In this document: positions 5,054 to 49,466 of the stretch, piece by piece
Position numbering within the stretch: position 1 is the stretch's first letter
Layout: each line of letters opens with the position of its first letter
Assembly: GCA_002414905.1 (NCBI GenBank)
Contig: DIAY01000212.1
Location: 51,697-115,696, forward strand
DNA length: 64,000 nucleotides
Origin: Holophagales bacterium UBA5066
GTDB taxonomy: Bacteria > Acidobacteriota > Thermoanaerobaculia > UBA5066
Reading direction: 5' to 3'
The notes under the pieces: model-generated
What the model saw: only the letters and a program-made list of their open reading frames with translations
Database searches by the model: none
Told to the model about the DNA's origin: nothing
Program-made: the position numbers and the translations under genes

Positions 5054-8000
5054 TTGAACGAGCCCTCGCTCCTCGATCTCGTACGCAGCCTCGCGACGCG
5101 CAAGCGCCTTCTTCGCCTGCTCCTCGTCGCGGTGGCCTTTGGCTCGCTCGCCATGGCGGCGAGCCTTCTCCTTTCGCCGGGCGTCTCTCTCTTGAGGCCC
5201 CTCGCCTGGGTCGTCTCCGCAGTCGCGCTGGGCGAGGCCGCTCGCCTCGCGGGGCGGACGAAGGTCGGGGAGACTCCGGTCGCAACGCCCGTCGAGGTCC
5301 TCCGGCGCCGGCCGTCGGCCCGGACCTTCGCCCTTCTGGCGGTCGTCCTCGTCGGCATCGGCTTTCGGGTGTCGTGGCTCAGCTGGGACGAGGGAGCGCT
5401 CCTTCACCCCGACGAATACGGGCTCACCGGCACGCTGACCAGACTCTCCTTTCCGAAGAACGCGGCCGAGTGGTTCGACACGCGCCTCTCCCCGATGAGC
5501 CCCTATCCGCACTACGACGTAGACGGACAGCGGCTTCCCGGCAAGGCACCAGACGAGGCGATGCGCTGGGGGCAGTGGCCCCAGTTCCTGATTCGCGGCA
5601 CGGCCGAGCTTCTGAGCGGGCGGCCCGAAGCGCCTGGAGAGGACTTCACCCGCTTCGCCGACCTCAGACTCCTCGGACGAAGGCTCTCGGCGGTCACGAG
5701 TGTCCTGACTCTTGGGCTGCTTTTCCTGCTCGCTCGCCGGCTCACAAGCCCTCCTACGGCCCTCCTCGCAACGGCTCTAGCGGCGCTCGCACCGCTCGCG
5801 CTCCAGCAGTCGCGATTCCTGACGGTCGACGGCTTCGCCGCGCTCTTCGCCACGGCGGCCCTCCTGCCGGTCGTTCGCATCGCCGCCCCCCGAGACGGGG
5901 AGCGCGGGCCGAAGGCCCCGGCGGCGCTCTTCGGACTCCTCGCGGCGATGGCGGTCGCATCCCGCCTCAACCTCGCTCCGATCGTTCTCCTCCTGCCACT
6001 GGCCCTCCTTCTGCGGGAACGGGGCGTCCCTCTTTCCGCTCTCCTTCGGCGTGCCGCCGGCCCGGTGTTTCTCGGCGCGATCGTCTTTCTGGCCACGTTC
6101 CGCGTCACGCAACCGATGTCCTTCCGCGCGCCCCGCGGAGAGACGACCCCGTTCACGCTCACTCTCAACGCCGACTGGCTCCGCAACGTCGAGCTGGCCC
6201 GCTCGGAGTCGGCCCTCGAGACCTCCGCTCCCCCCGCCGAGCAGTGGGCCGGCCGCACCCGCCTTCTCTTCCCCTCGCTCAACACGTTCCTCTGGGGCCT
6301 CGGAATTCCGGGCGGTCTTCTCGCCCTCGCGGGTCTCGGTCTCTCCCTCGCGGCAATCGCGAAGGGGAGCGCCCGCGCGGGGCCCGGGACGCTCGTCCTC
6401 CTCGCCTGGACCGTCGCGTTCTTTCTCTTCATGGCGATGCGCCCGGTCTCCTCGGTCCGCTACTTTCTCCCGCTCTATCCCCTCTTCGCGTTCTTCGGTG
6501 CGCTCGCCCTGGAGCGGCTCGAGGAGAGGCTTCGCACGAGAGGGGCCCGCCTCGCGGCGGTCGTCCCCGCGGCGGCCGTCCTTTTCGCCCTCGCCTGGGC
6601 GTGGGGATTCACGGGCATCTGGAGGCGGCCCAACACGCGGATCGCCGCGTCCCGCTATCTCTACGCGAATCTTCCGGCGGCGGCGAACGTCGTTCTCGAC
6701 GGGGGCGAGGGTCCCCGACGAATCCCGCTTCGCGATGGACGCTCGCGCGTCGTGTCGGAGGAAGCGACCGGCCTTCCCATTCCTGCTGGAACAGTTGGCG
6801 CTCTTCGTCGCGTCGAGTTCCCGCACGTCTGGGGTCCCCCCGGCTCGGAGATTCGGATCGCGATCCGAAAGAGCGGCAGTTCAGCCCCTCTGGCAGAAGG
6901 GACTTTCCCCGTTCCCCCGACCCGGCACCATCCGCTCGGAGACGCGGCTGCCGTTTCCGTCGGGCCTCTCGCGTTGCAGCCCGGCCAGGACTACGAGGTC
7001 GTCCTCTCGGCGCGCGGCGGGAGCGTCACGATCACCTCCTCCGTCCTCCTCAGCGAGACCTGGGACGAGGTTTTGCCGTGCGCTCTCGCCGGCCTCGACG
7101 GCCGTCTCTACGACGGACGCCTCCTCGCCGTTCGGGGCCCCGACAACGCCGTCAAGAGGGACGCTGTCCTTGCTGCGGTCGCCGAGGCCGACGCGATCGT
7201 CCTCTCGAGCCCCCGATCGCTCTGGGTCGTTCCCCGCCTTCCGCTGAATCACCCGTTCACGATGGCCTACTACCGCGCCCTCTTCGACGGAAGGCTCGGC
7301 TTCGCCGCCGCTCCCGCAAGTCCGTTCCAGGCGCCCCTGCGCCTCGGACCTCTCTGGATCTCGGACGTGGCGGGCGCGATGTCGTGGCGGCGTCCGCCGG
7401 TCCTGCCGCTTGCGGCCCCGGGCCCGTTCGCGGCGGAGGAGGCCTTCTTCGTCTACGATCACGCCCCGGTCTGGGTCTTCACGCGCGTGGCGCAACGAAG
7501 CCCGGCCGAGCTGGATGCGATCCTCCCCGCATCGCTCCTTCTCGACGTCGTCCCGCAGACGCCGCTCCAGGCGAGCGCGGCGCCCGACGGGCTGATGCTC
7601 CCGCCCGATCGTCTCGCGCGCGACGCGGCCGGTGAAGGGAGGAACGACGCGCCCTCTCCGGATTCCCGCCTGAACCGCTCCCCCGCGCTCACGATCCTGG
7701 CGTGGCTTGCGCTTCTGGCGCTCCTCGGCCTCGCAGGCCTGCCGTTCACGGCGGCGGCTTTCAGCCGCCTCCCTTCGGCGGCCTTTGCCTTCGCGCGCTT
7801 CGCCGGCCTCCTCCTGTCCGCCTGGCTGTCGTGGCTTCTCGCCTCGCTCCGGGTCGTCCCCTTCGGACGCGGCGCGATTCTCGTCGCGCTCTTCTTCGTT
7901 CTCCTCGCTTCGGGAACGCTGGCCTGGCGAAACCGGGTGTCTCTCCTCGAGCTCCTGCGGCGCGAGCGGCGGACGCTGCTCGCCACGGAGCTTCTCTTTT

Positions 8001-27965: not shown

Positions 27966-29192
27966 TCAGCCCTTGACGCAGACGACCTGGTGGAGCGTGT
28001 GGAGGATCTCCACGAGGTCCCTCTGCGCTGCCATGACGGCGTCGATCGACTTGTAGGCGCCGGGCGTCTCGTCGAGCACGTCGGCGTCCTTGCGGCATTC
28101 CACGCCCGCCGTCGCTCGCGCGTGATCCTCGAGCGTGAAGCGGCGCCGGGCCTCGGAGCGCGACATCGCCCTCCCCGCACCGTGGCTGCAGCTGCAGAAG
28201 CTCTCGGGGTTTCCGAGGCCGCGGACGATGTACGAGCGGGCGCCCATGCTGCCGGGGATGACGCCGAGGTCTCCCACCCGCGCCCTCACCGCCCCCTTGC
28301 GTGTCACGAAGACGTCCCGGCCGTAGTGGTGCTCGCGCTCGACGTAGTTGTGGTGGCAATTCACCGCGACGAGCCCCGCCTCGAATGGCCGGAGGCCTGG
28401 CACCGAGCGCAGCGCGGCGAGGATGCTGTCCATCATGAGCCGCCGGTTGCACAGCGCGAACTCCTGCGCCCACCCGACCGCCTCGACATAGTCGTCGAAG
28501 TGCACCGTCCCCTCGGGGAGATAGGCGAGGTCGGCGTCGGGGAGGTTGATGAAGTGACTGCGCATCTCCTCTTTTGCGAGGTCGATGAAGTAGGTCCCGA
28601 TCCGGTTGCCGATTCCGCGCGACCCGCTGTGGAGGACGACCCAGACCGACCCGGTCTCGTCGAGGCAGACCTCGATGAAGTGGTTGCCGGTGCCAAGCGT
28701 CCCGAGGTGCGAGACGTGGTTCGCCTTCCGGACGGCGGGGTGACGGTCGGCGAGCGACTCGTATCGCGGGGAGAGCGCGGCCCACGCCTGAAGGACGCGC
28801 TCCGGTGGATCGCCCCAGGCGCCCTGGTCGTTCCTCCCACCCCTCTCGGTGCGGCCGTGCGGGACCGCCGCCTCGATCGCGAGGCGCACGGCGTGGAGGT
28901 TGTCCGGGAGATCGTTTCCGGTCAGGTCCGTCCTGATCGCCATCATCCCGCAGCCGATGTCGACGCCGACGGCGGCCGGGATGATCGCGCCGAACGTCGG
29001 AATGACGCTCCCGATCGTGGCCCCTTTCCCGAGGTGGACGTCGGGCATCGCCGCCACCCATTTGTGGATGAACGGCAGGCTGCCGAGGTTCTGGAGCTGC
29101 TTGCGGGCCTCGGGCTCGAACGGCACGCCCCGCGTCCAGGCCTTGATGGGGACGCCCTTCGTTTCGATGACGTCGTAGTGGCGTTCGGTCAT
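27966..29192 (-). CDS. rtcB: RNA-splicing ligase RtcB
   Basis: Contains MPDVHLGKGATIGSVIPT, NCHHNY and SCSHGAGR (the metal and GMP histidine motifs). Confidence 0.9.
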   Translation of the reverse strand: MTERHYDVIETKGVPIKAWTRGVPFEPEARKQLQNLGSLPFIHKWVAAMPDVHLGKGATIGSVIPTFGAIIPAAVGVDIGCGMMAIRTDLTGNDLPDNLHAVRLAIEAAVPHGRTERGGRNDQGAWGDPPERVLQAWAALSPRYESLADRHPAVRKANHVSHLGTLGTGNHFIEVCLDETGSVWVVLHSGSRGIGNRIGTYFIDLAKEEMRSHFINLPDADLAYLPEGTVHFDDYVEAVGWAQEFALCNRRLMMDSILAALRSVPGLRPFEAGLVAVNCHHNYVEREHHYGRDVFVTRKGAVRARVGDLGVIPGSMGARSYIVRGLGNPESFCSCSHGAGRAMSRSEARRRFTLEDHARATAGVECRKDADVLDETPGAYKSIDAVMAAQRDLVEILHTLHQVVCVKG

Positions 29193-29479: not shown

Positions 29480-29496
29480 TGGCAACGACCTTGCAA
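29480..29496 (+). promoter_or_regulatory. sigma-54 (RpoN) -24/-12 promoter TGGCAA-cgacc-TTGCAA
   Basis: GG at 29481-82 and GC at 29493-94 give the canonical 12-nt register and a near-consensus TGGCAC-N5-TTGCA. The downstream gene has AGGAGG plus an ATG at 29554. It sits in a ~50% GC AT-rich intergenic region that carries IHF-like A/T tracts. Confidence 0.6.
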
Positions 29497-29553: not shown

Positions 29554-30237
29554 ATGGTCGCACTTCTCGTAATCCTCACCATCGTTCTGGCGCTCACCGT
29601 CGACAGCTTCGTTCTGGCCCGCCAGCGCCGGACGGCTCCCGTCGAGGCGCTTGCGCCGATCGTGGCGATGAAGGTGCCCCAGCCTCCCCAGGGCGTCTTC
29701 CTCGATACGGCCCACACCTGGCTGCGCATCACCAGCGACGGCCGCCTCCGCGTCGGCATCGACGACTTCCTCGCCGAGGCCGTCGGACAGATCGACCGGG
29801 TCGAAGTCCCACCGCAGGGGACGACGATCGAGCGCGGCAGCCCCCTTCTCACCCTCTTCGTAAAGGGCCGCAAGCTCGTCATCCCCTCTCCCGCCAGCGG
29901 TACCGTCATGTCGGCCAACGACAAGACCCAGCGCGACCCCTCCGCCGTCCTGCGCGACCCCTACGGCGCCGGCTGGCTCGCCTCGATCTGGACCCGCGAC
30001 CACCACGCCGCGATCAGCTCTCTTCGCATCGGTGCCGCCGCGACCCACTTCCTGCGCGACGAGCTCCACCGCCTCGCCGACTTCATGGTCCCCTCCCAGG
30101 AGATGGCCAGCGTCCCCGTCATGGCCGACGGCGGCCTCCCCGGTCAGGGCGCCGCAGCCCGCCTCGACGACAAGGCCTGGGAGAGCTTCTCCCGCGAGTT
30201 CGTCAACGCCCCCGAAGAGAAGACCCCGAACGCCTGA
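29554..30237 (+). CDS. membrane-anchored glycine-cleavage H-protein-like (GcvH-like, lipoyl/biotinyl-type hybrid barrel) protein
   Basis: An N-terminal TM helix (MVALLVILTIVLALTV) is followed by AHTWLRITSDGRLRVGIDDFLAEAVGQIDRVEVPPQG...LRDPYGAGWL. This aligns with GcvH EHEWV..GITDFAQ..LGDIVFVELPEVG and NEDPYGEGWL. A candidate lipoyl-Lys lies in LFVKGRK. Confidence 0.65.
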   Translation: MVALLVILTIVLALTVDSFVLARQRRTAPVEALAPIVAMKVPQPPQGVFLDTAHTWLRITSDGRLRVGIDDFLAEAVGQIDRVEVPPQGTTIERGSPLLTLFVKGRKLVIPSPASGTVMSANDKTQRDPSAVLRDPYGAGWLASIWTRDHHAAISSLRIGAAATHFLRDELHRLADFMVPSQEMASVPVMADGGLPGQGAAARLDDKAWESFSREFVNAPEEKTPNA

Positions 30238-36938: not shown

Positions 36939-39900
36939 ATGCAGCGTCTTCTCGCGACAGCTCTGTCCGCGGGTCTCCTCGCGGTCCTCCCCGTAATGCG
37001 CGCGTCCGCCCAGGGTCCCGCCGACGTCACGACCGGCCCGGACGTCACCCGGGACGCCCGCCTCCTCCGTTTCCCCGACGTCCACGGCGAAACGATCGTC
37101 TTCTCCCACGCGGGAGACCTCTGGACCGTCCCCGCCGCCGGTGGTACGGCCCGCCGCCTGACGACCGGAGACGGCCTCGAGCTCTTCCCCCGCTTCTCGC
37201 CCGACGGGAAGTGGATCGCCTTCACCGGCCAGTACGACGGGACGACCGACGTCTACGTCATGCCGGCCACCGGCGGCGAGCCGCGCCGCCTCACCTGGTA
37301 CCCGTCGACGGACCAGAGCGAGCGGATGGGACCCGACAACCTCGTCCTCGGCTGGACGCCGGACGGAAAGATTCTCTTCCGGGGCCTGCGCGGGCCGATC
37401 CGGGGCTTCGTCGGCGAGCCGTACGTCGTCTCGCCCGAGGGCGGCCCCATCGAGCGCTTCCCGCTTCCCGAGTCGGGGGCCATCAGCTTCTCGCCGGACG
37501 GCAGGAGAATCGCCTACAACCGGATTTTTCGGGACTTCCGCCCCTGGAAGCGCTACGAGGGTGGAATGGCCCAGGACGTCTGGCTGTACGACCTGGGAAC
37601 GAAAGCGATCGAGAGGCTGACCGACTGGCCCGGCACCGACACGCAGCCGATGTGGATCGGCGGCGCGGTCTACTTCCTCTCCGACCGCGACGGCTGGAAG
37701 GGGAACCTCTGGAAGTACGACCTGACGACGAAGGCGACGACGCGCGTCACGTCGTTCACCGGGTACGACGTGAAGTGGCCGCACGGAGGCGGAGGTGGCG
37801 GCGACTCGATCGCCTTCGAGAACGGCGGGTATCTCTACCTCCTCGACACGAAGAGCGGGCAGAGCCGCAAGGTGACGGTCGACCTCCCCGACGACCGGAA
37901 GTGGGCGCGGCCGCGCTGGGTGAAGGTGGACGACCAGATCACCGACTTCGCCCTCGCCCCGGGTGGGAAGCGGGCCGTCCTCACCGCCCGCGGCGACGTC
38001 TTCACCGTGCCCGTGGAGAACGGCAACACGAGGGACCTGACCCTCACGAACGGCGCACGGGAGCGCAACACCGTCTGGTCGCCCGACGGCAAGCAGATCG
38101 CGTACTGGTCCGACGCCTCCGGCGAGGAGGAGCTCTTCGTCGCGCCGCAGGACGGCAGGGGCAAGCCGGTGATGGTCGCCCCCGCGACGGGCACCTGGCA
38201 CTTCCCGCCCGTCTGGTCGGGCGACTCCAGGAAGCTCGCGTATTCCGACCGGGCGATGCGCCTCTGGGTCGTCGACATCTCCGAGAAAAAGCCCCTCCTC
38301 GTCGACACCGCGACGATCCTCGAAATCTCCAGCTACGCCCTCTCGCCCGACGGGCAGTGGCTCGCGTACGTGAAGACCGTCGAGAACGATTTCCCGGTCG
38401 TCTTTCTCCGCTCGCTCGCCACCGGGAAGACCGTCCCCGTCACTTCGGCCGCCTCCCATGCCGCCGAGCCGGTCTTCGACCCCGAAGGGAAGTACCTCTA
38501 CCTCCTCTCCGGCCGGGACCTCCACCCGACGCTCGGCGCCTTCGAGGCGTCGTACACCGTGAACAAGGCGACGCGTCCGTACGCGCTGCTTCTCGCCGCG
38601 GCGACGCCGTCACCCTTCGCCCCGCAGAGCGACGAGGCGAAGCTGGCCGGATCGAAGAACGAAGCCAGGGGTGAGAAGAAGCCCGACGCGGGCAAGGACG
38701 GGAAGAGGGACGGCGACGAGAAGGACGCCCCGAAGGCCGTGACGGTCAAAGTCGACCTCGAGGGCCTCGAAAGCCGGCTCGTCGCCTTCCCCGTCCCACC
38801 GGGCAACTACTTCGGCCTGAAGGCCGCGAAGGATCAGCTCTTCTGGCTTTCAGCACCGACGCTCGCGCTGACCGAGGGGGACGGCCCGCCGATGTCCGCC
38901 CTCCAGATGTACGACCTCGAGAAAAGGAAGGTCACCGACCTCTTCCCGGCCGTCGAGAACTACGACCTCGCCCCGGACGGCACCCGGCTCATCGTGAAGT
39001 CCGACGCGAAGACCTACCAGGTCGTCGAGCCGAAAGAAGGGCTCAAGCCGGGAGAAGGCAAGCTCGACCTCTCCGGCCTCCGGATGGAGCTCGATCCGCA
39101 GGCCGAGTGGCGGCAGATCTTTCTCGAAACGTGGCGCCTCTACCGCGACTTCTTCTACCTCCCCGACATGGGGAAGATCGACTGGGACGGCATCCGGAAG
39201 CGCTACGAGCCGCTCGTCGCACACGTCTCGCACCGCTACGACCTGACCTACGTCCTCTCCGAGGTCGCCGCCGAGCTCGGCTCGGGCCACGCCTACGTCG
39301 GCGGCGGTGACGCGCCGAAGGTGGAGAAGGTCCCCGTCGGGCTCCTGGGCGCCGATCTCGCGCTCGATGCGAAGGCGGGGCGCTGGAAGATCGCCCGCAT
39401 CATCCCCGGGCAGAACTGGAACGAGGCCCGGCGCTCGCCCCTGACCGAGCCGGGCGTGAACGTGAGGGAAGGCGAGTACCTCCTCGCGATCGACGGCCAC
39501 GACCTCACCGCGAAGGACGAGCCGTACCGGTTCCTGGCGGGCCTCTGGCCCGCGACGTCGGCCTCCGGCCCGACACCGCGCACGATCACGCTCCTCGTCA
39601 ACGCCCAGGCCGCGGCGGCCGGCGCCCGCGAGGTCGTCGTGAGGCCGATCGGAAACGAGGAGGAGCTGCGCTACGTCGACTGGGTCGAAACGAACCGAAA
39701 GAAGGTCGAAGCCGCCACGAACGGCCGCGTCGGCTACGTCCACATTCCGAACATGGGTGCCGACGGCCTCCAGGAGTTCATCCGGCAGTTCTACCCGCAG
39801 CTGCGCAAGGAGGCCCTCGTCGTCGACGTGCGTGCCAATGGCGGCGGCTTCGTCTCCGAGATGATCCTCGAGCGGCTCGCCCGCACCGTGAAGGGAATGG

Positions 39901-40349
39901 GCAATATGCGCAATGCCCGCCCCGGCCCGTACCCCACCGCCGCGTTCAACGGCCCGATGGTCGCCCTCATCAGCCCCTACTCCGCCTCGGACGGCGACAT
40001 CTTCCCCTACTACTTCCGCAAGTATGGTCTCGGGCCGCTCATCGGGAAGAGGACCTGGGGCGGTGTCGTCGGGATCCGAGGCCTGGGTGGCGGGATGGTC
40101 GACGGCGGCTACACGTTCGTCCCCGAGTTCGGCACATACGACCTGAAATCGCATTGGATCATGGAGAACGAAGGGGTCGCCCCCGACATCGAGGTCGACA
40201 ACCTGCCGGCCGACGAGCTGGCCGGAAAGGACGCCCAGCTCGAGCGCGGGATCGCCGAGGTGATGAAGCGGCTCGAGGCACACCCGCCGGTGTGGGCACC
40301 GGTACCGCCGTCGAGGGATCTGGCGAATCCGAAGGTGCCGGAGAAATAG
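36939..40349 (+). CDS. tricorn protease homolog (beta-propellers + PDZ + S41 peptidase domain)
   Basis: 1136 aa with a signal peptide. Contains [40 protein letters not shown] and the C-terminal S41 motifs. Confidence 0.85.
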
Positions 40350-40417: not shown

Positions 40418-42520
40418 ATGCTCGCCGTCCGAGACGACGCGACGATGAGCGGCGAAATGGCCCCGATTTCCCGGATTCCCCTCGAAGAGCGCTACCGGCT
40501 CCTCCTCGGGATCTCGAACGTCCTCGGCGTGATCCGCGATCCGGAAGAGCTCATCGCCGCACTCGCCCGCGAGCTCCACCGGATCGTCCCGTTCGACTTT
40601 CTGAGCCTCTACCTCGTGGACGCTTGCGGCGAGGGTCCGATCTGGCACGTCTGGCGGGTCGACGAGCAGTCCGTCGTCCGCCTCCCGGAGGGTATCCCCC
40701 TCGAAGAGACCGTCGAAGCGTGGGTCACGACAAACCGGCGGACGGCCTCCTGGCCGGCCGGGGCAGAGCAACCGGCATTTCCGAGGCTCGAGGAGGCGCT
40801 CGCCCGGCACGGCGTCCGTTCGCTCTTTGCGACTCCCCTCTGTACGGTGAACCGGCCGCTCGGAGCGATGACGTTCGCCAGTCTCGGCGAGGGCGCCTAC
40901 CCGGCCGAGGAGACGCGTTTTCTGTCGGTCGTCGCCGACCACCTCGCCCTCACGATCGACGGGGCCGCGACCTTCGCGCGCCTCAGGGTCGCGCACGAGC
41001 AGCTCGCCCGGAACAGCGAGCGGCGCAAGCTCGTCATCGAGGTCGGACGGAGCGTCCTTTCGATCCTCGACCTGCAGGAGCTCCTCCGCGCCATCTCGTC
41101 AAACGTCCGAAAGGTCCTGCGGTGTGACCTCGCGAGCGTCGTTCTCGTCGATGCGGACCGGACCCAGGCCCAGCTCTACGTTCTCGACTTTCCCGAGAGC
41201 CGTGGCTTCTTCCGGGAAGGGGCCGTCGTCCCGGTAGAGGGGAGGGAGATGGAGGAGTTCCTCCGGGCCGGCCAGCCTCGCGAGGTGTCCTTCGACGGGC
41301 TGACGGGGCCGGGGATGGAGGGCGTGAGGCAGGAAGGCTTCCGGACCGGGATCGTCCTTCCCCTCCTCAGCCGGGGACGCGCCGTCGGCCTCTTCACGGT
41401 CATGAGACGCGGCGACGGGCGGTTCGACAGGGATGAGGTCGAGCTCGCCGTTCTCGTCGGGGGGCAGATCGCGACCGCGCTCGACAACGCGCTCGCCTAC
41501 CGCGAGATCGCCCAGCTCAGGGACAAGCTCGCCGAGCAGAAGCTCTATCTCGAGGACGAGATCCGCAGCGAGCTCAACTTCGAGGAGATCGTCGGGCGGA
41601 GCGAGCCGCTCCGACGCGTCCTGAGGCAGGTCGAGACCGTCGCCCCGACCGGCTCGACCGTCCTGATCCACGGCGAGACCGGCTCGGGGAAGGAGCTGAT
41701 CGCGCGCGCCATCCACGACCGCGGCGCCAGGAGCGGCCGGACGTTCGTCAAGCTGAGCTGCGCAGCGATCCCCGCGGGGCTCCTCGAGAGCGAGCTCTTC
41801 GGCCACCAGAAGGGGGCGTTCACCGGCGCGATCGCGGACCGCGTGGGGCGGTTCGAGCTCGCGAACGGGGGGACCGTCTTCCTCGACGAGATCGGGGAGA
41901 TCCCTCTCGAGCTCCAGCCCAAGCTCCTCCGCGTCCTGCAGGAACGCGAGTTCGAGAGGCTCGGGAGCTCGAAGACGCTCCGGACCGACGCGCGGCTCAT
42001 CGCGGCGACGAACCGGGACCTCGCCGCGATGGTCGACGCGGGGACGTTTCGCGCGGACCTCTTCTACCGCCTGAACGTCTTTCCCATCCTCGTTCCCGCG
42101 CTTCGCGAGCGGCCCGAGGACATTCCGCTCCTCGTGCGCCACTTCGTCCAGCAGCTCGGACGCCGGATGAACCGGGTCGTCGAGACGATTCCGGCCGGGA
42201 CGATGTCGGCCCTCTGCCGCTACGACTGGCCCGGGAACATCCGCGAGCTCCAGAACCTGATCGAGCGCGCGATGATCCTGACGACCGGCCCCGTCCTGCG
42301 GGTTCCCCTCGACGACCTGAAGTCGCGCGGGACGCCGGGAGCGGCCAACGGCCGCCTGCCGACCCTCGAGGAAGCGGAGCGCGAGCACATCGTCTCCGCG
42401 CTCGAGGAGACCAGGTGGGTCGTCGGCGGCCCGAACGGTGCAGCCGTACGGCTCGGCCTGAAGCGGTCCACGCTCCAGTTCCGGATGAAGAAGCTCGGAA
42501 TCGACCGCCCTGCACGCTAA
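40418..42520 (+). CDS. sigma-54-dependent transcriptional activator (bEBP) with N-terminal GAF domains, AAA+ domain and C-terminal HTH
   Basis: Contains GETGSGKE (Walker A), the GAFTGA motif ([10 protein letters not shown]), ELFGH and a C-terminal Fis-type HTH. The start is [12 protein letters not shown]. Confidence 0.9.
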
Positions 42521-42557
42521 GTCCTCTTCATCGGAAACAGGCCCGCCTCCCTCGCCG

Positions 42558-42597
42558 TGGCGCCAGCATGTTGGCGCGTGCCAACATGCTGGCGCCA
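42558..42597. promoter_or_regulatory. perfect 18-bp inverted repeat TGGCGCCAGCATGTTGGC-gcgt-GCCAACATGCTGGCGCCA, 38 nt after the bEBP stop and ~100 bp upstream of sigma-54-like promoters
   Basis: Read directly from the sequence and checked base by base. The position fits either a bEBP enhancer (UAS) or a U-less terminator hairpin for the bEBP gene. Confidence 0.5.
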
Positions 42598-42662
42598 AAT
42601 GATTGGCACCGCCGGGATGGGTTCTGTCTTAGAATTAAGTTAAGTTGTTCTATTAGAACAAC

Positions 42663-42708
42663 TTGGCGTGTCGTTCGCCGACTTGCCCGTCGCGGCATTC
42701 TCCTTGCT
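42663..42708 (+). promoter_or_regulatory. two candidate sigma-54 -24/-12 elements: TGGCGT-gtcgt-TCGC (42663-78) and CGGCAT-tctcc-TTGCT (42693-708)
   Basis: Both have GG and GC in the 12-nt register. The second has a perfect TTGCW -12 box and lies 29 nt upstream of the STAS ATG, with GAGGAGG between them. A low-GC tract (ttagaattaagttaagttgttctattagaac) lies between the palindrome and these elements. Confidence 0.45.
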
Positions 42709-42735
42709 CACCCACCTTGCGCGAGGAGGCCGCCC

Positions 42736-43077
42736 ATGCTGAAGATCACGACCTGGACCGAGCATGAAGAAGTCTGTCTGAAGCTCGAGGGCGACCTGGT
42801 CGGTACCTGGGTTCGCGATCTCGAAGAGTGCTGGCGGTCGAACCGTTCGAAGGGCGGCGGCTCGGGGGTCTGCCTCGACCTCACGGGCGTCACGCGCGTG
42901 GACGACGCGGGTCGCTATCTCCTCGCGCTGATCCAGGAGACCGGGGCTCGGATGGTCTCGACCGGTGTCGCGATGAAGGACCTGCTCGAGTCGATCGCCC
43001 GCGACTGGCCGCGGGCGCGGACCGAGAGCAAGGGTTGGGTTGCCCTCCCCACGGCCCGTGCGGCCGATGCGGGATGA
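42736..43077 (+). CDS. STAS-domain protein (anti-sigma-factor-antagonist / SpoIIAA-like fold)
   Basis: 113 aa. Contains CLKLEGDLVG...VCLDLTGVTRVDDAGRYLLALIQETGARMVSTGV. It is the first gene of the RND operon. Confidence 0.7.
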   Translation: MLKITTWTEHEEVCLKLEGDLVGTWVRDLEECWRSNRSKGGGSGVCLDLTGVTRVDDAGRYLLALIQETGARMVSTGVAMKDLLESIARDWPRARTESKGWVALPTARAADAG

Positions 43078-43112
43078 AGCACCCGGAACCAGACCACGAG
43101 AAGAACAGCCGA

Positions 43113-44324
43113 ATGAGCTCGATGGAGAAACAGATGAGTGAACGCCGTCCCCTTTTCCCGGCCTTTCCGATTCTCGCCACCGCCACCGTCGTCGCGGTGC
43201 TGACCGCCGCGTGCGGCAAGGGCCCGGCTCAGCCGCCGCAGGGGCCGGCCGAGGTCGGTGTCGTCACGATGACGACCGAGAAGGTCATCCTGACGACGGA
43301 GCTCCCGGGCCGTACGTCGCCTTTCCTCGTCGCCGAGGTCCGCCCGCAGGTGAACGGTCTCCTTCGTGAGAGGAGCTTCGAAGAAGGCTCCAGCGTGAAG
43401 GCGGGCGCGCTCCTCTACCAGATCGACCCGGCTCCCTACCAGGCCGCGTTCGAACAGGCGAAGGCGTCGCTCGCGATGGCCGAAGCGAACCTCCCGGCCG
43501 CTCGTGCGCGCGCCGCACGACTCAAGGGGCTGGTCGAGATTCGCGCCGTCGGGCAGCAGGACTACGACGACGCCGCAGCGGCGGCGATGCAGGCCGAGGC
43601 GGGCGTCGCGGCCGCGAAGGCGACCGTGGAGAGCGCGCGGATCAACCTGTCCTACACGCCGATCCGCGCACCGATCTCCGGCCGGACGGGCAAATCGAGC
43701 GTGACCGTCGGCGCGCTCGTGACGGCGTACCAGCCGGTTCCCCTCACGGTCGTCCAGCAGCTCGACCCGATCTACGTCGACGTGACGCAGTCCTCCGTCG
43801 AGCTCCTCCACCTTCGGGAAGGATTCAGGAGCGGAGGCCTCACCCGGAACGACGCCTCATGGAGCAAGGTCAAGCTCGTCCTGGAGGACGGGACGACCTA
43901 CCCGCGGGAAGGGAAGCTCAAGTTCCGCGACGTGACGGTCGACCCGACGACCGGGTCCGTCAGCCTCCGCATGGTCTTTCCGAACCCCGACGACCTTCTC
44001 CTTCCGGGGATGTTCGTCCGCGCGATCGTCGAAGAAGGTGTGATCAAGGACGCGATCCTCGTTCCCCAGCAGGGCGTCACCCGCGATCAGAAGGGACACC
44101 CCTACGCCCTCGTCGCCGGCAAGGACGGGAAGGCCGAGCAGCGGATGCTGACGCTCGACCGGGCTATGGGCGACCGCTGGCTCGTCACGAAGGGGCTCGC
44201 CACGGGCGACCAGGTCATCGTCGACGGTCTGCAGCGGATACGCCCCGGAGCCGACGTGAAGACGGTGCCGTTCACGGCGCCGGCCAGCTCCGGGCCCGGC
44301 ACGGCAGCCCCGGCGGCGAAGTAG
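43113..44324 (+). CDS. RND efflux periplasmic adaptor (membrane fusion protein) lipoprotein
   Basis: Has a lipobox LTAAC and HlyD-like coiled-coil and barrel regions (INLSYTPIRAPISGRTG). Confidence 0.9.
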   Translation: MSSMEKQMSERRPLFPAFPILATATVVAVLTAACGKGPAQPPQGPAEVGVVTMTTEKVILTTELPGRTSPFLVAEVRPQVNGLLRERSFEEGSSVKAGALLYQIDPAPYQAAFEQAKASLAMAEANLPAARARAARLKGLVEIRAVGQQDYDDAAAAAMQAEAGVAAAKATVESARINLSYTPIRAPISGRTGKSSVTVGALVTAYQPVPLTVVQQLDPIYVDVTQSSVELLHLREGFRSGGLTRNDASWSKVKLVLEDGTTYPREGKLKFRDVTVDPTTGSVSLRMVFPNPDDLLLPGMFVRAIVEEGVIKDAILVPQQGVTRDQKGHPYALVAGKDGKAEQRMLTLDRAMGDRWLVTKGLATGDQVIVDGLQRIRPGADVKTVPFTAPASSGPGTAAPAAK

Positions 44325-44333
44325 GGAGGCGCG

Positions 44334-47300
44334 ATGTCTCGATTTTTCCTCGAGCGCCCCGTCTTCGCCTGGGTTATCGCGATCGCGATGATGCTGGCGG
44401 GCGGCATGGCGATCGTGAACCTTCCGATCTCCCAGTACCCGCCCATCGCGCCGCCCTCGATCGGGATCCGGGCCATCTACCCCGGGGCGTCCGCGAAAAC
44501 CGTCGAGGATTCCGTCGTCCAGATCATCGAGCAGAAGATGACCGGGCTCGACCGGATGCTCTACATGTACTCCACCGCCGACTCGTCGGGCAGCACGCAG
44601 ATCACGTTGACGTTCGCACCGGGGACCGATCCCGACATCGCCTGGTCGAAGGTCCAGAACAAGCTCCAGCTCGCGATGCCGGCCCTCCCCGACGTCGTCC
44701 AGCAGGCGGGTGTGACCGTCAGCAAGGCGACACGGAATTACCTCCTCATCGCCGGCGTCGTCTCCGAGGACGGCAGCCTCGACAACGCGGACCTCAACGA
44801 CTACACCTCCTCGAAGATCGAGTCGGTCATCGGCCGGGTCCCCGGCGTCGGTGAAGTCGAGGTCTTCGGAACCTCCTATTCGATGCGGGTCTGGTTCGAC
44901 CCGGACAAGCTGACGAAGTACGGGATGACGTCGGACGACGTCGTCGCCGCCCTGAGGGCTTACAACGTCGAGGTCTCCGCCGGTCAGCTCGGCGGTGCGC
45001 CGGCCGTCCCCGGACAACGCCTCAACGCTTCGATCCTCGTCCAGTCGCTCCTGAAGACACCGGAGGAATTCGCGTCGGTCCCGCTCCGGACGAACACCGA
45101 CGGGTCGGTCGTGACGGTGAAGGACATCGGCCGGGCCGAGCTGGGCACCGAAGCTCCCGACGTGGCGTTCCGGTTCAACGGAAAGCCGGCGGGCGTCTTC
45201 GCGGTCCGTCAGGAGGCGGGGGCGAACGCCCTCGACACCGCTCGCCGGGTCAAGGAGAAGATGGAGGAGCTCTCGCACTTCTTCCCGCCCGGGATGAAGC
45301 CGGTCTACATCTACGACACGACCCCGTTCGTGAAGGTGGCCATCGACGACGTCTTCAAGACGCTCTTCGAGGCGATCATCCTCGTCTTCCTCGTCATGTA
45401 TCTGTTCCTCGGAAACCTCCGGGCGACGCTCATCCCGACGATCGCCGTCCCGGTCGTCATTCTCGGGACGTTCGGCGTCCTCGGCTTCCTCGGCTACTCG
45501 ATCAACATGCTGACGATGTTCGCCATGGTGCTCGCCATCGGGCTCCTCGTCGACGATGCGATCGTCGTCGTCGAGAACGTCGAGCGGATCATGAGCGAGG
45601 AAGGACTCTCCCCGCTCGAGGCGACCCGGAAGTCGATGGACGAGATCACGAGCGCCCTCGTCGGGATCGGCCTCGTCCTCTCGGCGGTCTTCGGGCCGAT
45701 GGTCTTCTTCCCGGGCTCCACCGGCGTCATCTACCGGCAGTTCTCGGTCACCGTCATCGCTTCGATGCTCCTCTCCGTCGCCGTCGCCCTCATCCTGACG
45801 CCCGTTCTCTGCGCGACGCTCCTCCAGCCCGTCGCCAAGGGGCACGAGACGGCGGAGACGGGCAGCAGCTTCCTGCGGCCGTTTTTCCTCTGGTTCGACC
45901 GGCTCTTCAACCGGTTGAGGGACCATTACACGCGGTCGGTCGGCCAGATCCTCGGAAAGAGAAGCCTCTTTGCCGTCGTCTTCGCCGTGATCGTCGGTGT
46001 GATGGTGCTTCTCTACCTCCGGATGCCGACCGGCTACCTTCCGGACGAAGACCAGGGGACGCTGATGGCGATGGTCCAGCTCCCGGTCGGCTCGACGCTC
46101 GAGCAGACGCAGGCCGTCATGGCTGATGTCGAGCACCACTTCCTCGTCGACCAGAAGGACGCCGTGAAGTCGTGCGGCGCGGTATCGGGGTCGGGTTTCG
46201 GCGGGCGAGGCCAGAACATGGGGATGATCTTCGTCCAGCTCAAGGACTGGAAGCTGCGCAACCGCCCCGGCCTGCGCGCCAAAGACGTCGCTGGCAAGGC
46301 GATGCAGGCGCTCTCGGGCCAGCGCGGCGCCATCGTCTTCGCCTTCCCGCCCCCCGCCGTCGTCGAGCTCGGTACGGCGACCGGATTCGACCTGATGCTC
46401 CAGGACCGGGGCGACCTCGGGCACGATGGCCTCACGGGCGCGATGGGTCAGCTCCTCGGGCTTGCCGCAAAGGATCCCCGCCTCGCCCGCGTCAGGCCGA
46501 ACGGGATGCCGGACGTCCCGCAGTACAAGGTCGACATCGACTGGGAGAAGGCGGGTGCCTTCGGCGTCCCGGTCAGCTCGATTCAGAGCTATCTCTCGGC
46601 GGCGTTCGGCAGCGCGTACGTCGGAAACTTCGTTCAGGGAGGACGGGTCAAGCGCGTCTACGCCCAGGCCGACGCCCCGTTCCGGATGCTCCCGGGGGAC
46701 TTCCACCGCCTCCAGGTCCGCAACCGCAAGGGCGGACTCGTCCCCCTGTCAGCCGTGACCTCGGGCCGGTGGATCTATGGTTCGCCGCGGCTCGAGCGAT
46801 ACAACAGCTTCCCCGCGATGAACATCCAGGGGGAGCCCGCGCCCGGACACAGCTCCGGCGAGGCGATGCTCGCCATGGAGGAGCTCATCGGCAAGCTCCC
46901 GGCCGGAGTCGGCTACGAGTGGACGGGACTCTCCTACCAGCAACGGATGTCGGAGTCGCAGACGGGGCTCCTCTACTCCTTCTCGATCCTCGTGATCTTC
47001 CTCGTCCTGGCGGCGCTCTACGAGAGCTGGACGGTCCCGATCTCGATCGTCCTCGCCCTCCCGCTCGGCGTCATCGGCGGCGTCATCGCCTCCTCCATGC
47101 GCGGCATGACGAACGACGTCTACTTCCAGATCGGTCTTCTCGCCGTCCTCGGCCTGACGACGAAGAACGCGATCCTCATCGTCCAGTTCGCCGTGGCAAA
47201 CCGCGAGAAGGGGATGGGCCTCGTCGACGCGACCCTCGAGGCGGCCAAGACCCGGCTCCGCCCGATCGTGATGACCTCGTTGGCGTTCGGTTTCGGTGTC

Positions 47301-47507
47301 CTGCCGCTCACGCTCGCGAGCGGAGCCGGGGCCGGCGCGCAGAAGGCGATCGGCACGAGCGTCCTCGGTGGCATGCTGAGCGGCACGTTCCTCGCCGTCA
47401 TCTTCATCCCGCTCCTCTACGTCCTCGTCGTTCGGCTCTTCGAGGGCAGGAAGGCCGAAGCGGCGCAACCCGCCCCCGAGGCGCCGCTCCCGGCGGAGGG
47501 AAAGTGA
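44334..47507 (+). CDS. RND multidrug efflux permease (HAE1/AcrB family)
   Basis: 1057 aa with 12 TM segments and two large periplasmic loops. AcrB-like motifs are present throughout. Confidence 0.95.
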   Translation: MSRFFLERPVFAWVIAIAMMLAGGMAIVNLPISQYPPIAPPSIGIRAIYPGASAKTVEDSVVQIIEQKMTGLDRMLYMYSTADSSGSTQITLTFAPGTDPDIAWSKVQNKLQLAMPALPDVVQQAGVTVSKATRNYLLIAGVVSEDGSLDNADLNDYTSSKIESVIGRVPGVGEVEVFGTSYSMRVWFDPDKLTKYGMTSDDVVAALRAYNVEVSAGQLGGAPAVPGQRLNASILVQSLLKTPEEFASVPLRTNTDGSVVTVKDIGRAELGTEAPDVAFRFNGKPAGVFAVRQEAGANALDTARRVKEKMEELSHFFPPGMKPVYIYDTTPFVKVAIDDVFKTLFEAIILVFLVMYLFLGNLRATLIPTIAVPVVILGTFGVLGFLGYSINMLTMFAMVLAIGLLVDDAIVVVENVERIMSEEGLSPLEATRKSMDEITSALVGIGLVLSAVFGPMVFFPGSTGVIYRQFSVTVIASMLLSVAVALILTPVLCATLLQPVAKGHETAETGSSFLRPFFLWFDRLFNRLRDHYTRSVGQILGKRSLFAVVFAVIVGVMVLLYLRMPTGYLPDEDQGTLMAMVQLPVGSTLEQTQAVMADVEHHFLVDQKDAVKSCGAVSGSGFGGRGQNMGMIFVQLKDWKLRNRPGLRAKDVAGKAMQALSGQRGAIVFAFPPPAVVELGTATGFDLMLQDRGDLGHDGLTGAMGQLLGLAAKDPRLARVRPNGMPDVPQYKVDIDWEKAGAFGVPVSSIQSYLSAAFGSAYVGNFVQGGRVKRVYAQADAPFRMLPGDFHRLQVRNRKGGLVPLSAVTSGRWIYGSPRLERYNSFPAMNIQGEPAPGHSSGEAMLAMEELIGKLPAGVGYEWTGLSYQQRMSESQTGLLYSFSILVIFLVLAALYESWTVPISIVLALPLGVIGGVIASSMRGMTNDVYFQIGLLAVLGLTTKNAILIVQFAVANREKGMGLVDATLEAAKTRLRPIVMTSLAFGFGVLPLTLASGAGAGAQKAIGTSVLGGMLSGTFLAVIFIPLLYVLVVRLFEGRKAEAAQPAPEAPLPAEGK

Positions 47508-48955
47508 TGAACGGCAAGCTGATCCCGCGTGGCCTCGCACTCCTCTCCGCAGCGCTCCTGGCAAGCGGCTGCACCATGATCCCGAAGTATGAACAGCCGC
47601 CTCTGCCGGTGGCGGACTCCTTCGAAGCGGCGGCCGGTGCCGGAAGCGGCACGGCACCCGCCCCGGGCGAGGCTGACCCCGTCCCCGCTGCGCCCGTCCC
47701 CGCGGCGAAGGACGTTCCCTGGCAGGAGTACATCACCGACGCACGCCTGAGGTCGGTCATCGACCTCGCGCTCGCGAACAACCGCGACCTGAGAGTCGCG
47801 ACGCTCAACATCGAGAGGGCCGCGGCTCTCTACCGGATCCAGCGCTCCGACCTGTTCCCGACGATCGGCGTCCAGGCGACGGGCAACAAGTACCGGATTC
47901 CGGAAAGCCTCGGGGAGAACGGGAAGGCGAGCACCGTCTCGACCTACACCGTCGGCCTCGGGATGGCCTCGTGGGAGATCGATCTCTTCGGGCGTATCCA
48001 GAGCCTGAACGCACGCGCCCTCGAGCAGTACCTCGCAACGGAGCAGGTCCGGCGCGGTGCGCAGACCTCGCTCATCGCGGCGGTCGCCCAGAGCTGGCTG
48101 CAGCTCGCGGCTGACGAGGAGAACCTCCGGCTCTCGAGGGAGACGCTCGCCGCGCAGCAGAACTCGTACGAGCTGATCCGGATGAGCCGGGACGCGGGGA
48201 TCGGCTCCGACGTCGAGCTTCGCCAGTCGCAGAGCCAGGTGGAGGCGTCCCGCGCGAGCGTCGCCGCCTTCACGGGCGCGGTCGGCGTCTCGCGCAACGC
48301 GCTCGACCTCCTCGCCGGAACACCGGTCCCGGCCGACCTGCTTCCCGACCGCCTCGTCGCAGTGACGGACCCGAAGGGGCTCTCCTCCGGCCTCCCGTCG
48401 GAGGTTCTCCTGCGCCGGCCCGACATCCTCGCCGCCGAGCATCTCCTCCGCGGCGCGAACGCGAACATCGGTGCGGCCCGAGCCGCCTTCTTCCCGCGCA
48501 TCTCCCTCACCGCCGGCTTCGGCACGTCGAGCCCCGACCTCGACGGCCTCTTCAAGGCCGGGACGAGCGTCTGGAGCTTCGTGCCCCAGATCGTCTCACC
48601 GCTCTTCGCGAGCGGCTCCCTCCTCGCGAACCTGAAGGTCTCGAAGGTCGACCGCGAGATCGCGGTAGCGACCTACGAGAAGGCGATCCAGACCGCGTTC
48701 GCCGAGGTCAACGACGCCCTGACGCTCCGGACGACGCTGGTCGCCCAGAAGGAGGCGCAGGACGCCCTCGTCGAGGCGCTCGACGCAACGCTGTTCCTCT
48801 CCGACGCGCGCTTCAAGGCCGGGCTCGACGGGTATCTCGGCGTCCTCGTTGCCCAGCAGGCGATCATCAACGCCCAGCGCGCAGCGGTCGGCGTCCGCCT
48901 CGCCGAGCAGGCGAACCTCGTGGCTCTCTACAAGGTCCTCGGCGGAGGGGTGTGA
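47507..48955 (+). CDS. RND efflux outer membrane factor lipoprotein (NodT/OprM family)
   Basis: The start overlaps the permease stop. It has a lipobox LASGCT and duplicated alpha-barrel repeats. Confidence 0.9.
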   Translation: MNGKLIPRGLALLSAALLASGCTMIPKYEQPPLPVADSFEAAAGAGSGTAPAPGEADPVPAAPVPAAKDVPWQEYITDARLRSVIDLALANNRDLRVATLNIERAAALYRIQRSDLFPTIGVQATGNKYRIPESLGENGKASTVSTYTVGLGMASWEIDLFGRIQSLNARALEQYLATEQVRRGAQTSLIAAVAQSWLQLAADEENLRLSRETLAAQQNSYELIRMSRDAGIGSDVELRQSQSQVEASRASVAAFTGAVGVSRNALDLLAGTPVPADLLPDRLVAVTDPKGLSSGLPSEVLLRRPDILAAEHLLRGANANIGAARAAFFPRISLTAGFGTSSPDLDGLFKAGTSVWSFVPQIVSPLFASGSLLANLKVSKVDREIAVATYEKAIQTAFAEVNDALTLRTTLVAQKEAQDALVEALDATLFLSDARFKAGLDGYLGVLVAQQAIINAQRAAVGVRLAEQANLVALYKVLGGGV

Positions 48956-49082: not shown

Positions 49083-49466
49083 ATGGCAAGACCGATTTCA
49101 GTGATCATCGATGACATCGTCGCGAACCTCCGGGAGTTGAAGGACGCTGTCGGCCCCTTCGCAAGGCTGGCCTCTGTTTTCAAGGGAGCCGACGAACCCT
49201 CTCCGGTCAGGAAGGCCGGCAGGAAGCCGGGACCGGCGAAGAACTCCCCGGCTGTCGTGAAGGCTGCTGCAACTCCTGTGAAGCCACCTGCGGCTGCAAA
49301 GGAGGCCCGGAAGCCGAGCCCGGCGCTTCAGGCGCAGGGCCGCTACATGTCGGCGATTCGTCGCCTCTCGAAGACCCAGAAGGCCGAGATCAAGAAGATC
49401 CGGGCCGAGAAGGGCGTAGAAGAGGCGATCAGGATCGCCCTGGCAAAGCCTTCCAGAAGGAAATAG
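49083..49466 (+). CDS. small Lys/Ala/Pro-rich basic protein (histone-H1-like tail, possible nucleoid-associated/DNA-binding)
   Basis: 127 aa. Locally low GC at the 5' end with AAAGGAG before the ATG. Contains KAAATPVKPPAAAKEARKP. It lies immediately left of the first tRNA-fragment repeat. Confidence 0.45.
   Translation: MARPISVIIDDIVANLRELKDAVGPFARLASVFKGADEPSPVRKAGRKPGPAKNSPAVVKAAATPVKPPAAAKEARKPSPALQAQGRYMSAIRRLSKTQKAEIKKIRAEKGVEEAIRIALAKPSRRK

Follow-up and report, generated by a model that had tools for sequence, protein, structure and literature searches.

Genes and control region of the locus

The 64-kb stretch of DNA analysed here (the window; 68.5% GC) carries on its plus strand, between 36.9 and 49.0 kb, genes for a Tricorn-type protease, a sigma-54 activator of the bacterial enhancer-binding protein (bEBP) type, a small protein with a STAS fold, and the periplasmic adaptor, the permease and the outer-membrane factor (OMF) of a resistance-nodulation-division (RND) efflux pump. 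All positions are forward-strand coordinates of the window, and comparative sequence analysis was used throughout; contigs identical to the window occur in public metagenomes. The region from the activator to the pump probably forms a self-contained sigma-54 circuit of an uncultured, soil-type acidobacterium of Holophagales/Thermoanaerobaculia type. A preliminary description of this DNA had listed a GAF-containing bEBP, an inverted repeat, an AT-rich tract, -24/-12 elements, a STAS protein and an RND pump, and all of these were recovered in place.

The bEBP (40418-42520, plus strand; 700 amino acids; stop codon at 42518-42520) is built as GAF-GAF-AAA+-HTH_8, and its Pfam content comprises two GAF domains, Sigma54_activat (PF00158, 232 bits), AAA_lid_14 and HTH_8. 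The GAFTGA loop, the Walker A and B motifs and the sequence DEIGE are visible in the translated AAA+ domain, and the C-terminal Fis-type helix-turn-helix (HTH) scores 33.8 bits with PF02954 (cutoff 22). The PDB matches are the AAA+ cores of ZraR, NifA, NtrC and FleQ. The top NCBIfam model is FhlA (NF011958), which aligns with residues 191-698 only and reaches 520 bits against a cutoff of 830; the protein is therefore FhlA-like in architecture, yet not FhlA.

The intergenic region between the bEBP and STAS genes is 215 nt long. An inverted repeat begins 37-38 nt past the bEBP stop, with two 18-nt arms (42558-42575 and 42580-42597) that are 100% complementary and enclose a 4-nt loop, which agrees with the 18-bp perfect repeat reported earlier at ~38 nt past the stop. 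It occurs once in the window, where 0.03 matches are expected by chance, and a REP-like dispersed repeat was rejected because the arm sequence is found nowhere else in the 64 kb. The 40-bp palindrome of the preliminary description is thus present and perfect, but at the DNA level its units are two of three tandem 14-bp dyads of the form GCCA-N6-TGGC, and the perfect-hairpin form is peculiar to this genome. Dyad 1 (GCCAGCATGTTGGC, 42562-42575) lies in the left arm and starts at -132 from the GG of the -24 element, dyad 2 (GCCAACATGCTGGC, 42580-42593) lies in the right arm at -114, and dyad 3 (GCCAAATGATTGGC, 42594-42607) is conserved and lies outside the hairpin at -100. Relative to the predicted transcription start, the three dyads are located at about -156, -138 and -124.

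The sigma-54 promoter CGGCATTCTCCTTGCT occupies 42693-42708 on the plus strand, with its GG at 42694-5 and its GC at 42706-7, i.e. a GG-N10-GC core (consensus TGGCAC-N5-TTGCW) at a fitting distance from the start codon. Transcription is predicted to begin near 42719; downstream of this point come the ribosome-binding site GAGGAGG (42723-42729) and the STAS gene (42736-43077, plus strand; 113 amino acids), the first gene of the operon. Where the preliminary description allowed for one or two -24/-12 elements, one is conserved; a second element at TGGCAC (42604-42609) was rejected, as these bases are the right half of the conserved dyad 3 and the accompanying GGATGG is a poor -12 sequence. No sigma-70-like promoter was found in 42300-43300. 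There was also no Rfam match in the whole window, and a known RNA family or riboswitch in the leader was rejected.

An AT-rich tract of 27.5% GC (42626-42665) separates the dyads from the promoter. It is lineage-specific and a possible bend region, of the kind bound by integration host factor (IHF), or an extra operator. It contains a perfect 11-1-11 palindrome, AAGTTGTTCTA-T-TAGAACAACTT, at 42642-42664, which is unique in the window. The tract itself had been noted before and is confirmed here, but the palindrome inside it is absent at the equivalent position in all other related loci (alignment A1); it was rejected as a conserved operator and may be a lineage-specific extra operator or bending site. 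IHF-like cores scoring at least 6/9 occur between enhancer and promoter in 16 of 18 related loci, against a background of 15%.

The three pump genes follow on the plus strand. The adaptor, an AcrA/MexA-like lipoprotein (43074-44324), scores 276 bits with TIGR01730 (cutoff 94.9); the HAE1-type RND permease (44334-47507; 1057 amino acids) scores 1200 bits with ACR_tran and 1525 bits with TIGR00915 (cutoff 940); and the NodT-family OMF lipoprotein (47507-48955; 482 amino acids) matches OEP and reaches 354 bits with TIGR01845 (cutoff 210). Each of the three exceeds its NCBIfam subfamily cutoff, as expected of an HAE1 RND tripartite pump. The start of the adaptor gene is ambiguous. The longest open reading frame (ORF), from 43074, overlaps the STAS stop codon (ATGA), and the adaptor homologs align only from about residue 10-25 onward; a start at 43134 is more likely, as it is preceded at 6 nt by a GGAG and followed by the lipoprotein signal peptide MSERRPLFPAFPILATATVVAVLTAAC. 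The gap between the STAS and adaptor genes is at most 56 nt (a 4-nt overlap if translation starts at 43074), which fits co-transcription.

Conservation of the promoter and the dyad array

We collected 105 STAS loci, 81 of them non-redundant, and 66 could be assessed for an upstream bEBP. The genome-collection scan used a 10-sequence STAS alignment; genes were called by codon log-odds trained on the window, a procedure that misses STAS genes in lower-GC loci, and the STAS genes were located by tblastn and a hidden Markov model (HMM). The relatives in genome collections are all metagenome-assembled genomes of Acidobacteriota (Holophagales, Thermoanaerobaculia and Bryobacteraceae). A comparison of STAS-RND adjacency, as the preliminary description had proposed, shows the order bEBP-STAS-adaptor-RND-OMF in every related locus with enough flank, and the flanks themselves are unrelated (e.g., TRCF/rotamase, malic enzyme or PTS genes).

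Domain content, operon order, promoter core and the dyad array with its fixed geometry can be read directly from the aligned sequences. The distance from the -24/-12 core GGCA[T/C]-N5-nTTGC to the STAS ATG is 41-43 nt in 18 of the 18 related loci, while the spacer bases vary freely. In the same loci the dyad half-sites GCCA and TGGC are invariant and the N6 between them is variable, and the dyads start at -132, -114/-113 and -100/-99 relative to the GG of the -24 element, with deviations of no more than 2 bp in almost every locus. Over the wider collection, 62 of 100 loci have a sigma-54-type promoter scoring at least 9/11 within the 300 nt before the STAS gene (4% of random windows), and a GCCR-N6-YGGC dyad is found 40-220 nt upstream of the GG in 56 of 66 non-redundant promoter-bearing loci (11% of random windows). 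A first dyad at -129 to -136 is also found in L056, L061 and L066, where the upstream gene encodes an isoamylase or a FUSC-like protein instead of a bEBP, and dyads of the same type follow the genes of distant bEBPs in L106 (TGCCGATATTTCGGCA), L107 and L110 (TGCCGAAATACCGGCA). Dyad-symmetric sites are thus conserved together with the promoter, within the ~80-150 bp upstream of it where a bEBP enhancer is expected, and an array with this conserved geometry is what a sigma-54 promoter with its bEBP enhancer should look like. Regulon mapping can make use of the predicted enhancer motif, TGCCR-N6-YGGCA.

The enhancer-dependent control by a GAF-containing bEBP that had been suggested before is thus supported by conserved gene order, by the -24/-12 core and by dyad half-sites at fixed distances, and we consider it probable that the STAS-adaptor-RND-OMF transcript is activated from ~42719 by the bEBP and sigma-54 via the three dyads. 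In this circuit, the FhlA-like bEBP would bind the three tandem TGCCA-N6-TGGCA dyads just 3' of its own stop codon, and a small-molecule signal sensed by the GAF domains would lead to its oligomerisation. The DNA would then loop, probably aided by the bent or IHF-bound AT-rich spacer, and ATP hydrolysis would open the sigma-54 holoenzyme on GGCAT-N6-TTGC (42694-42707), producing a transcript with a ~17-nt leader that encodes the STAS protein and then the AcrAB/NodT-type tripartite RND pump. The STAS protein, made from the activated promoter, may in turn feed back on the bEBP. The binding of the bEBP to this DNA, the sigma-54 dependence in vivo and the inducing signal are what we infer from the conserved arrangement.

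Several observations weigh against this circuit. No rpoN gene was seen in the annotated part of the window, which covers a minority of its ORFs, and the window as a whole holds 8 matches to the -24/-12 consensus where 9.5 are expected, i.e. not above chance. The positions of the IHF-like cores vary, so the IHF step is only suggestive. Dyads 1 and 2 can be folded as an RNA hairpin in all 18 loci (ΔG -17 to -38 kcal/mol), there is weak covariation in the stem (17 double-change cells against 9.4 expected), and a secondary role of the dyad hairpin in terminating or stabilising the bEBP mRNA is possible.

These folding properties, and a perfect 18-bp stem of -38 kcal/mol that starts 37 nt past a stop codon, would also suit a palindrome that serves the bEBP mRNA solely as an intrinsic terminator or stabilising hairpin, the terminator reading being one that the preliminary description had considered; control of the pump would then lie with some other promoter or regulator, e.g. 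a repressor whose operator could be the perfect AT-rich palindrome. This explanation is very improbable. When 18 stem pairs were counted on the 18-locus alignment, 83.6% of the stem cells were paired, against 80.2% in the shuffled control, and this pairing arises mostly because each dyad is itself palindromic; two central stem pairs are broken in 7-8 of the 18 loci although GCCA and TGGC are invariant. The hairpin is followed by AAATGATTGG and not by a U-tract, and the terminator scan of 42300-43300 was negative, so that a canonical intrinsic terminator was rejected. The AT-rich palindrome that would serve as operator is missing from the relatives, no sigma-70 promoter was found, and the -24/-12 core is invariant. 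Finally, the spacing of ~130 nt between dyad and promoter persists at loci where another gene takes the place of the bEBP gene, which argues for an enhancer and not just a terminator; together with the conserved dyad 3 outside the stem and the frequency of dyads in the wider collection, this indicates that the dyad is part of the promoter and no 3'-terminal feature of the bEBP gene.

The STAS family, its cargo and its possible partners

The STAS ORF scores 22.2 bits with Pfam STAS_2, below the gathering cutoff of 29.2, and some of its homologs carry a precomputed PF13466 match. An AlphaFold2 model built on 53 homologs has a pLDDT of 78.9, and its Foldseek matches are SpoIIAA, TM1442 and RsbV with E ~1e-6 and TM-scores of 0.63-0.68 (e.g., 1thn_B with E 1.5e-6 and 1vc1_A with a TM-score of 0.66), followed more weakly by MlaB. 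The model confirms a STAS fold of the 113-residue protein at the superfamily level. In a profile search against the PDB, the family motif 'LDLtgVsrVDdAG' is aligned with 'LDLSSVSYMDSAG' (MDSAG) of TM1442 and with 'VDTGG' of MlaB, which places Asp57 (in V55-D56-D57-A58-G59) opposite the phosphorylatable Ser/Thr. This position is Asp in the RND clade to which the window belongs, and Ser, Thr, Arg, Gly, Asn or Cys elsewhere; the protein of the window lacks the Ser/Thr at the start of helix 2 (D-S-x-G) that characterises the SpoIIAA/RsbV antagonists. The family comprises 123 homologous clusters in a 90%-identity collection and 1,182 cluster representatives at E<=1e-10 in a 50%-identity library, nearly all of them stand-alone proteins of 95-115 residues. 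It is largely unannotated, only some members having a Pfam STAS_2 match or a JGI name, and several are labelled 'MlaB component' by JGI.

A STAS protein at the head of an RND operon had been regarded as an oddity of this locus. The comparison does not bear this out: the family heads sigma-54 operons with varied cargo, and it is the bEBP that it tracks. A bEBP gene lies directly upstream of the STAS gene in 48 of the 66 assessable loci (49 with the frameshifted L005), and L084 and L096 have it downstream. The cargo is adaptor-RND(-OMF) in 17 loci, OMF-YtcA-HlyD-FUSC in 10 loci, with 8 more contigs breaking off inside the OMF gene, OMF-HlyD-ABC2-ABC2 in 3 loci, cNMP-DUF1003 in 2 loci, and a DUF4956/PLD/PhoD set and an S15 peptidase in 1 locus each; a tripartite efflux system stands directly after the STAS gene in about three quarters of the loci with assessable cargo. 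By this census the STAS family is not RND-specific, and heads sigma-54 operons for RND, FUSC, ABC-2 and major facilitator superfamily (MFS) pumps as well as for non-pump cargo. The cNMP-DUF1003 clade (L023 at ~6760-6880; L027, L032, L036) has its sigma-54 promoter ~230 nt before the STAS gene, and a conserved ORF for a ~40-residue peptide with a single transmembrane segment (MALIGLIGGLILCALVFAGLRS...) and its own ribosome-binding site lies between the two.

In a reciprocal test, we searched with the N-terminus of the bEBP alone and inspected the gene contexts of distant matches. For four of the five distant GAF or GAF-GAF bEBPs (28-40% identical to the query where the two align), the next ORF downstream belongs to the STAS family (HMM E 4e-12 to 9e-22; hhalign probabilities of 97-99% for the three ORFs compared). 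The cargo is an ECF sigma factor in L106, adaptor-MFS in L107, unknown plus tannase-like genes in L108, and adaptor-RND-OMF in L110. In L106 (6001-9271), the GAF-GAF bEBP and the STAS-family ORF are followed directly by a sigma-70 family factor of the ECF type and a DinB-like gene; the output of the sigma-54 cassette would here be an ECF sigma factor. L111 (5001-11789) encodes a PAS-GAF bEBP, a 177-residue ORF with neither a Pfam nor a STAS-profile match, and an OMF-adaptor-RND operon with the element TGGCATGGCGTATGCG; bEBP-linked RND operons therefore exist also without a STAS protein.

What the STAS protein does in the circuit is a separate matter. Among cytoplasmic proteins, only the bEBP recurs in nearly all contexts, and the STAS protein is therefore favoured as its partner; the adaptor and OMF that the pumps share lie outside the cytoplasm and are therefore out of reach for a cytoplasmic STAS protein. 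We put it at slightly less than even odds that the protein is a dedicated cytoplasmic partner of the bEBP family, not a pump subunit, and acts as a feedback modulator of either sign. By analogy with PspA-PspF and HycA, it would most simply be an anti-activator; HycA antagonises FhlA. With Asp at the phospho-serine position in this clade, it would work without phosphorylation. A wider proposal, which is more tentative, makes the whole STAS family a kinase-independent partner (anti- or co-activator) of the FhlA-like GAF-bEBP family, in a portable two-gene cassette of bEBP, TGCCR-N6-YGGCA enhancer, sigma-54 promoter and STAS gene that is placed ahead of at least four tripartite efflux types (RND, FUSC/AaeAB-type, ABC-2, MFS) and other cargo; in some lineages, where STAS is fused ahead of the OMF signal peptide, a membrane-tethered STAS domain would remain for every pump subunit exported and could titrate the activator.

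Some findings weigh against the partner role. An adjacent upstream bEBP is missing in 17 of the 66 loci, most of which keep promoter and dyad, and no STAS gene was found next to L109, a distant GAF-GAF bEBP. Natural single-ORF fusions join STAS, at the N-terminus, to a hydrophobic segment that resembles a signal peptide and ends in A-x-A/Q, and then to a TolC-family OMF. Among the top 150 representatives of the family there are at least 8 of them, in addition to L101 (1167-2762); they include P0198, P0210, P0227, P0164, P0257, P0156 and P0265. Three further fusions have a STAS domain, a transmembrane segment and a periplasmic domain in place of the OMF; P0172, P0266 and P0232 are also fusions of one or the other kind. 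Among the long family members, all of these two kinds, no Rosetta-stone fusion of STAS and bEBP was found. In L068 (6992-8424) and L091, a STAS homolog that keeps the Ser (IDSAG) adjoins a SpoIIE-type PP2C phosphatase (PF07228, 137 bits), an adaptor and an RND permease of 1146 residues, with neither a bEBP nor a sigma-54-like promoter found at these loci; conventional partner-switching relatives therefore also adjoin RND pumps. Through the OMF fusions and this PP2C pairing, membrane- or pump-linked roles and partner-switching roles stay as rivals. Two side observations concern the same loci. A cytoplasmic domain ahead of an OMF signal peptide is an odd topology, and the fusion sequences suggest that a membrane-tethered STAS remnant stays after cleavage. 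The ORF upstream of the L068 STAS gene (L068:6035-6964) starts with a segment resembling the STAS N-terminus (…NDNPQALTFQFDGKLEGPGV…), which may be the remnant of a duplicated STAS start, and continues as a DUF3313 lipoprotein-like domain.

The first of these rivals takes the STAS protein as an accessory of the pump or of its biogenesis. It would work either on the cytoplasmic side of the inner membrane, in the way that MlaB works with MlaF, or in OMF handling, and would be co-expressed as part of the efflux machine. The frequency of tripartite efflux systems directly after the STAS gene and the recurrent OMF fusions fit such a role, as do L056, L061 and L066, which keep STAS and pump without an adjacent bEBP; MlaB is also among the fold and sequence matches, and the JGI label points the same way. 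We nevertheless consider it unlikely. The inner-membrane components of these pumps (RND, FUSC, ABC-2 permeases and MFS) are unrelated and have no common cytoplasmic surface, and the only shared parts are periplasmic or in the outer membrane. No ABC ATPase is encoded in the operon, pump-free STAS operons exist (cNMP-DUF1003, PhoD/PLD, ECF sigma factor, tannase-like gene), and the bEBP-seeded sampling finds the STAS ORF in four of five cases regardless of cargo.

The second rival is less likely again: a conventional anti-sigma-factor antagonist whose kinase, phosphatase and target are encoded elsewhere, the sigma-54 operon merely supplying the STAS protein, as with SypA. The nearest structures (SpoIIAA, TM1442 and RsbV) are of this class, Ser/Thr is kept at the phospho-site in some clades, sigma-70/ECF sigma genes lie near the STAS gene in L092 and L106, the L068/L091 relatives adjoin the PP2C phosphatase, and a locus controlled by sigma-54 and SypG begins with the gene of a STAS protein, SypA (PMC4517449). 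Against this, the phospho-site is Asp in the window clade and often Arg, Gly, Asn or Cys elsewhere, and neither a HATPase_c anti-sigma kinase nor a PP2C phosphatase was found in the cassette of the window or at any bEBP-linked locus examined. The tight and deep co-occurrence with one bEBP family would also be unexpected for a generic antagonist.

Known systems and neighbouring features

The bEBP shares with FhlA, its best NCBIfam match, a GAF-GAF-AAA+-HTH architecture of ~690-700 residues, but its score shows that it is not an ortholog, and its upstream activating sequence is TGCCA-N6-TGGCA instead of CATTTCGTACGAAATG. In the hyc system of the E. coli/Salmonella formate regulon, the first gene of the FhlA-activated sigma-54 operon hycABCDEFGHI, hycA, also encodes a small protein (PMC4987338), but HycA has no STAS fold and the cargo is a hydrogenase instead of an efflux pump. 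In the Psp system, the sigma-54 operon likewise begins with the gene of a small protein, PspA, and this protein controls PspF, the bEBP encoded next to it (PMC4987338). PspF lacks a sensor domain, PspA belongs to the coiled-coil, ESCRT-III-like proteins and not to the STAS proteins, and anti-activation at the present locus is a proposal by analogy. Three tandem enhancer sites are all required by NorR. These are dyads of the form GT-N7-AC, bound by a GAF-sensing bEBP (PMC4987338), but NorR has a single GAF domain and other half-sites, its norVW cargo is a nitric oxide reductase, and no STAS protein is involved. The closest parallel for the STAS gene is the syp locus of Vibrio fischeri, in which the first gene of a SypG/sigma-54-activated locus encodes SypA, a single-domain STAS protein of unknown mechanism (PMC4517449); SypA is phosphorylated at Ser56 by SypE, whereas the window protein has Asp at that position and no SypE-like gene, and SypG belongs to the response regulators instead of the GAF proteins, with polysaccharide synthesis as cargo. 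With SpoIIAA, RsbV, TM1442 and MlaB the window protein shares the STAS fold, and the motif 'LDL..V..vD.AG' aligns with those of TM1442 and MlaB; its clade differs from them in having no phosphorylatable Ser, no neighbouring anti-sigma kinase or phosphatase and no neighbouring ABC ATPase.

The adaptor, permease and OMF resemble those of AcrAB-TolC and MexAB-OprM in passing the NCBIfam subfamily cutoffs. Pumps of the AcrAB/MexAB type are classically under TetR/MarR-type repressors or two-component systems, with sigma-70 promoters; here a bEBP and a sigma-54 promoter take the regulator role. Full-text searches of the literature library used returned no description combining STAS, sigma-54 and efflux, nor bEBP with RND or Acidobacteria with sigma-54, in this arrangement, and two broad sigma-54 regulon surveys are silent on it (PMC3162934, PMC12316311). 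Each component class (bEBP, sigma-54 promoter, dyad enhancer, STAS fold and HAE1 pump) is known; what appears new is the conserved acidobacterial bEBP-enhancer-promoter-STAS cassette, predicted to control several classes of tripartite efflux pumps; its enhancer motif is likewise a prediction. In a whole acidobacterial lineage, an ATP-dependent sigma-54 switch that works through a small-molecule-sensing GAF activator appears to govern RND pumps as well as three further pump classes, which gives a concrete efflux logic for Acidobacteriota, a dominant but poorly cultured soil phylum. If the STAS protein is a direct partner of the bEBP, it would be a new type of bEBP modulator and would extend STAS partner-switching beyond anti-sigma kinases and transporters.

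Outside the circuit, the best match to the sigma-54 consensus in the window is TGGCAACGACCTTGCA at 29480-29495 (plus strand), with one mismatch. It sits in a 361-nt gap, 58 nt upstream of a GcvH-like gene (29554-30237, plus strand), and is adjoined by a divergent gene for an RtcB RNA ligase (27966-29192, minus strand). Elsewhere, rtc genes are a classic target of sigma-54 and RtcR; no bEBP was found among the scanned genes neighbouring 29480-29495. The Tricorn-type protease gene (36939-40349, plus strand) is located 5' of the bEBP gene. At the other end of the locus, ~130 nt past the OMF gene, lies a small ORF (49083-49466, plus strand; 121-127 residues) with no Pfam match; at the equivalent position, L006 has an unannotated ORF of 167 residues, and other relatives have unrelated genes on the opposite strand.

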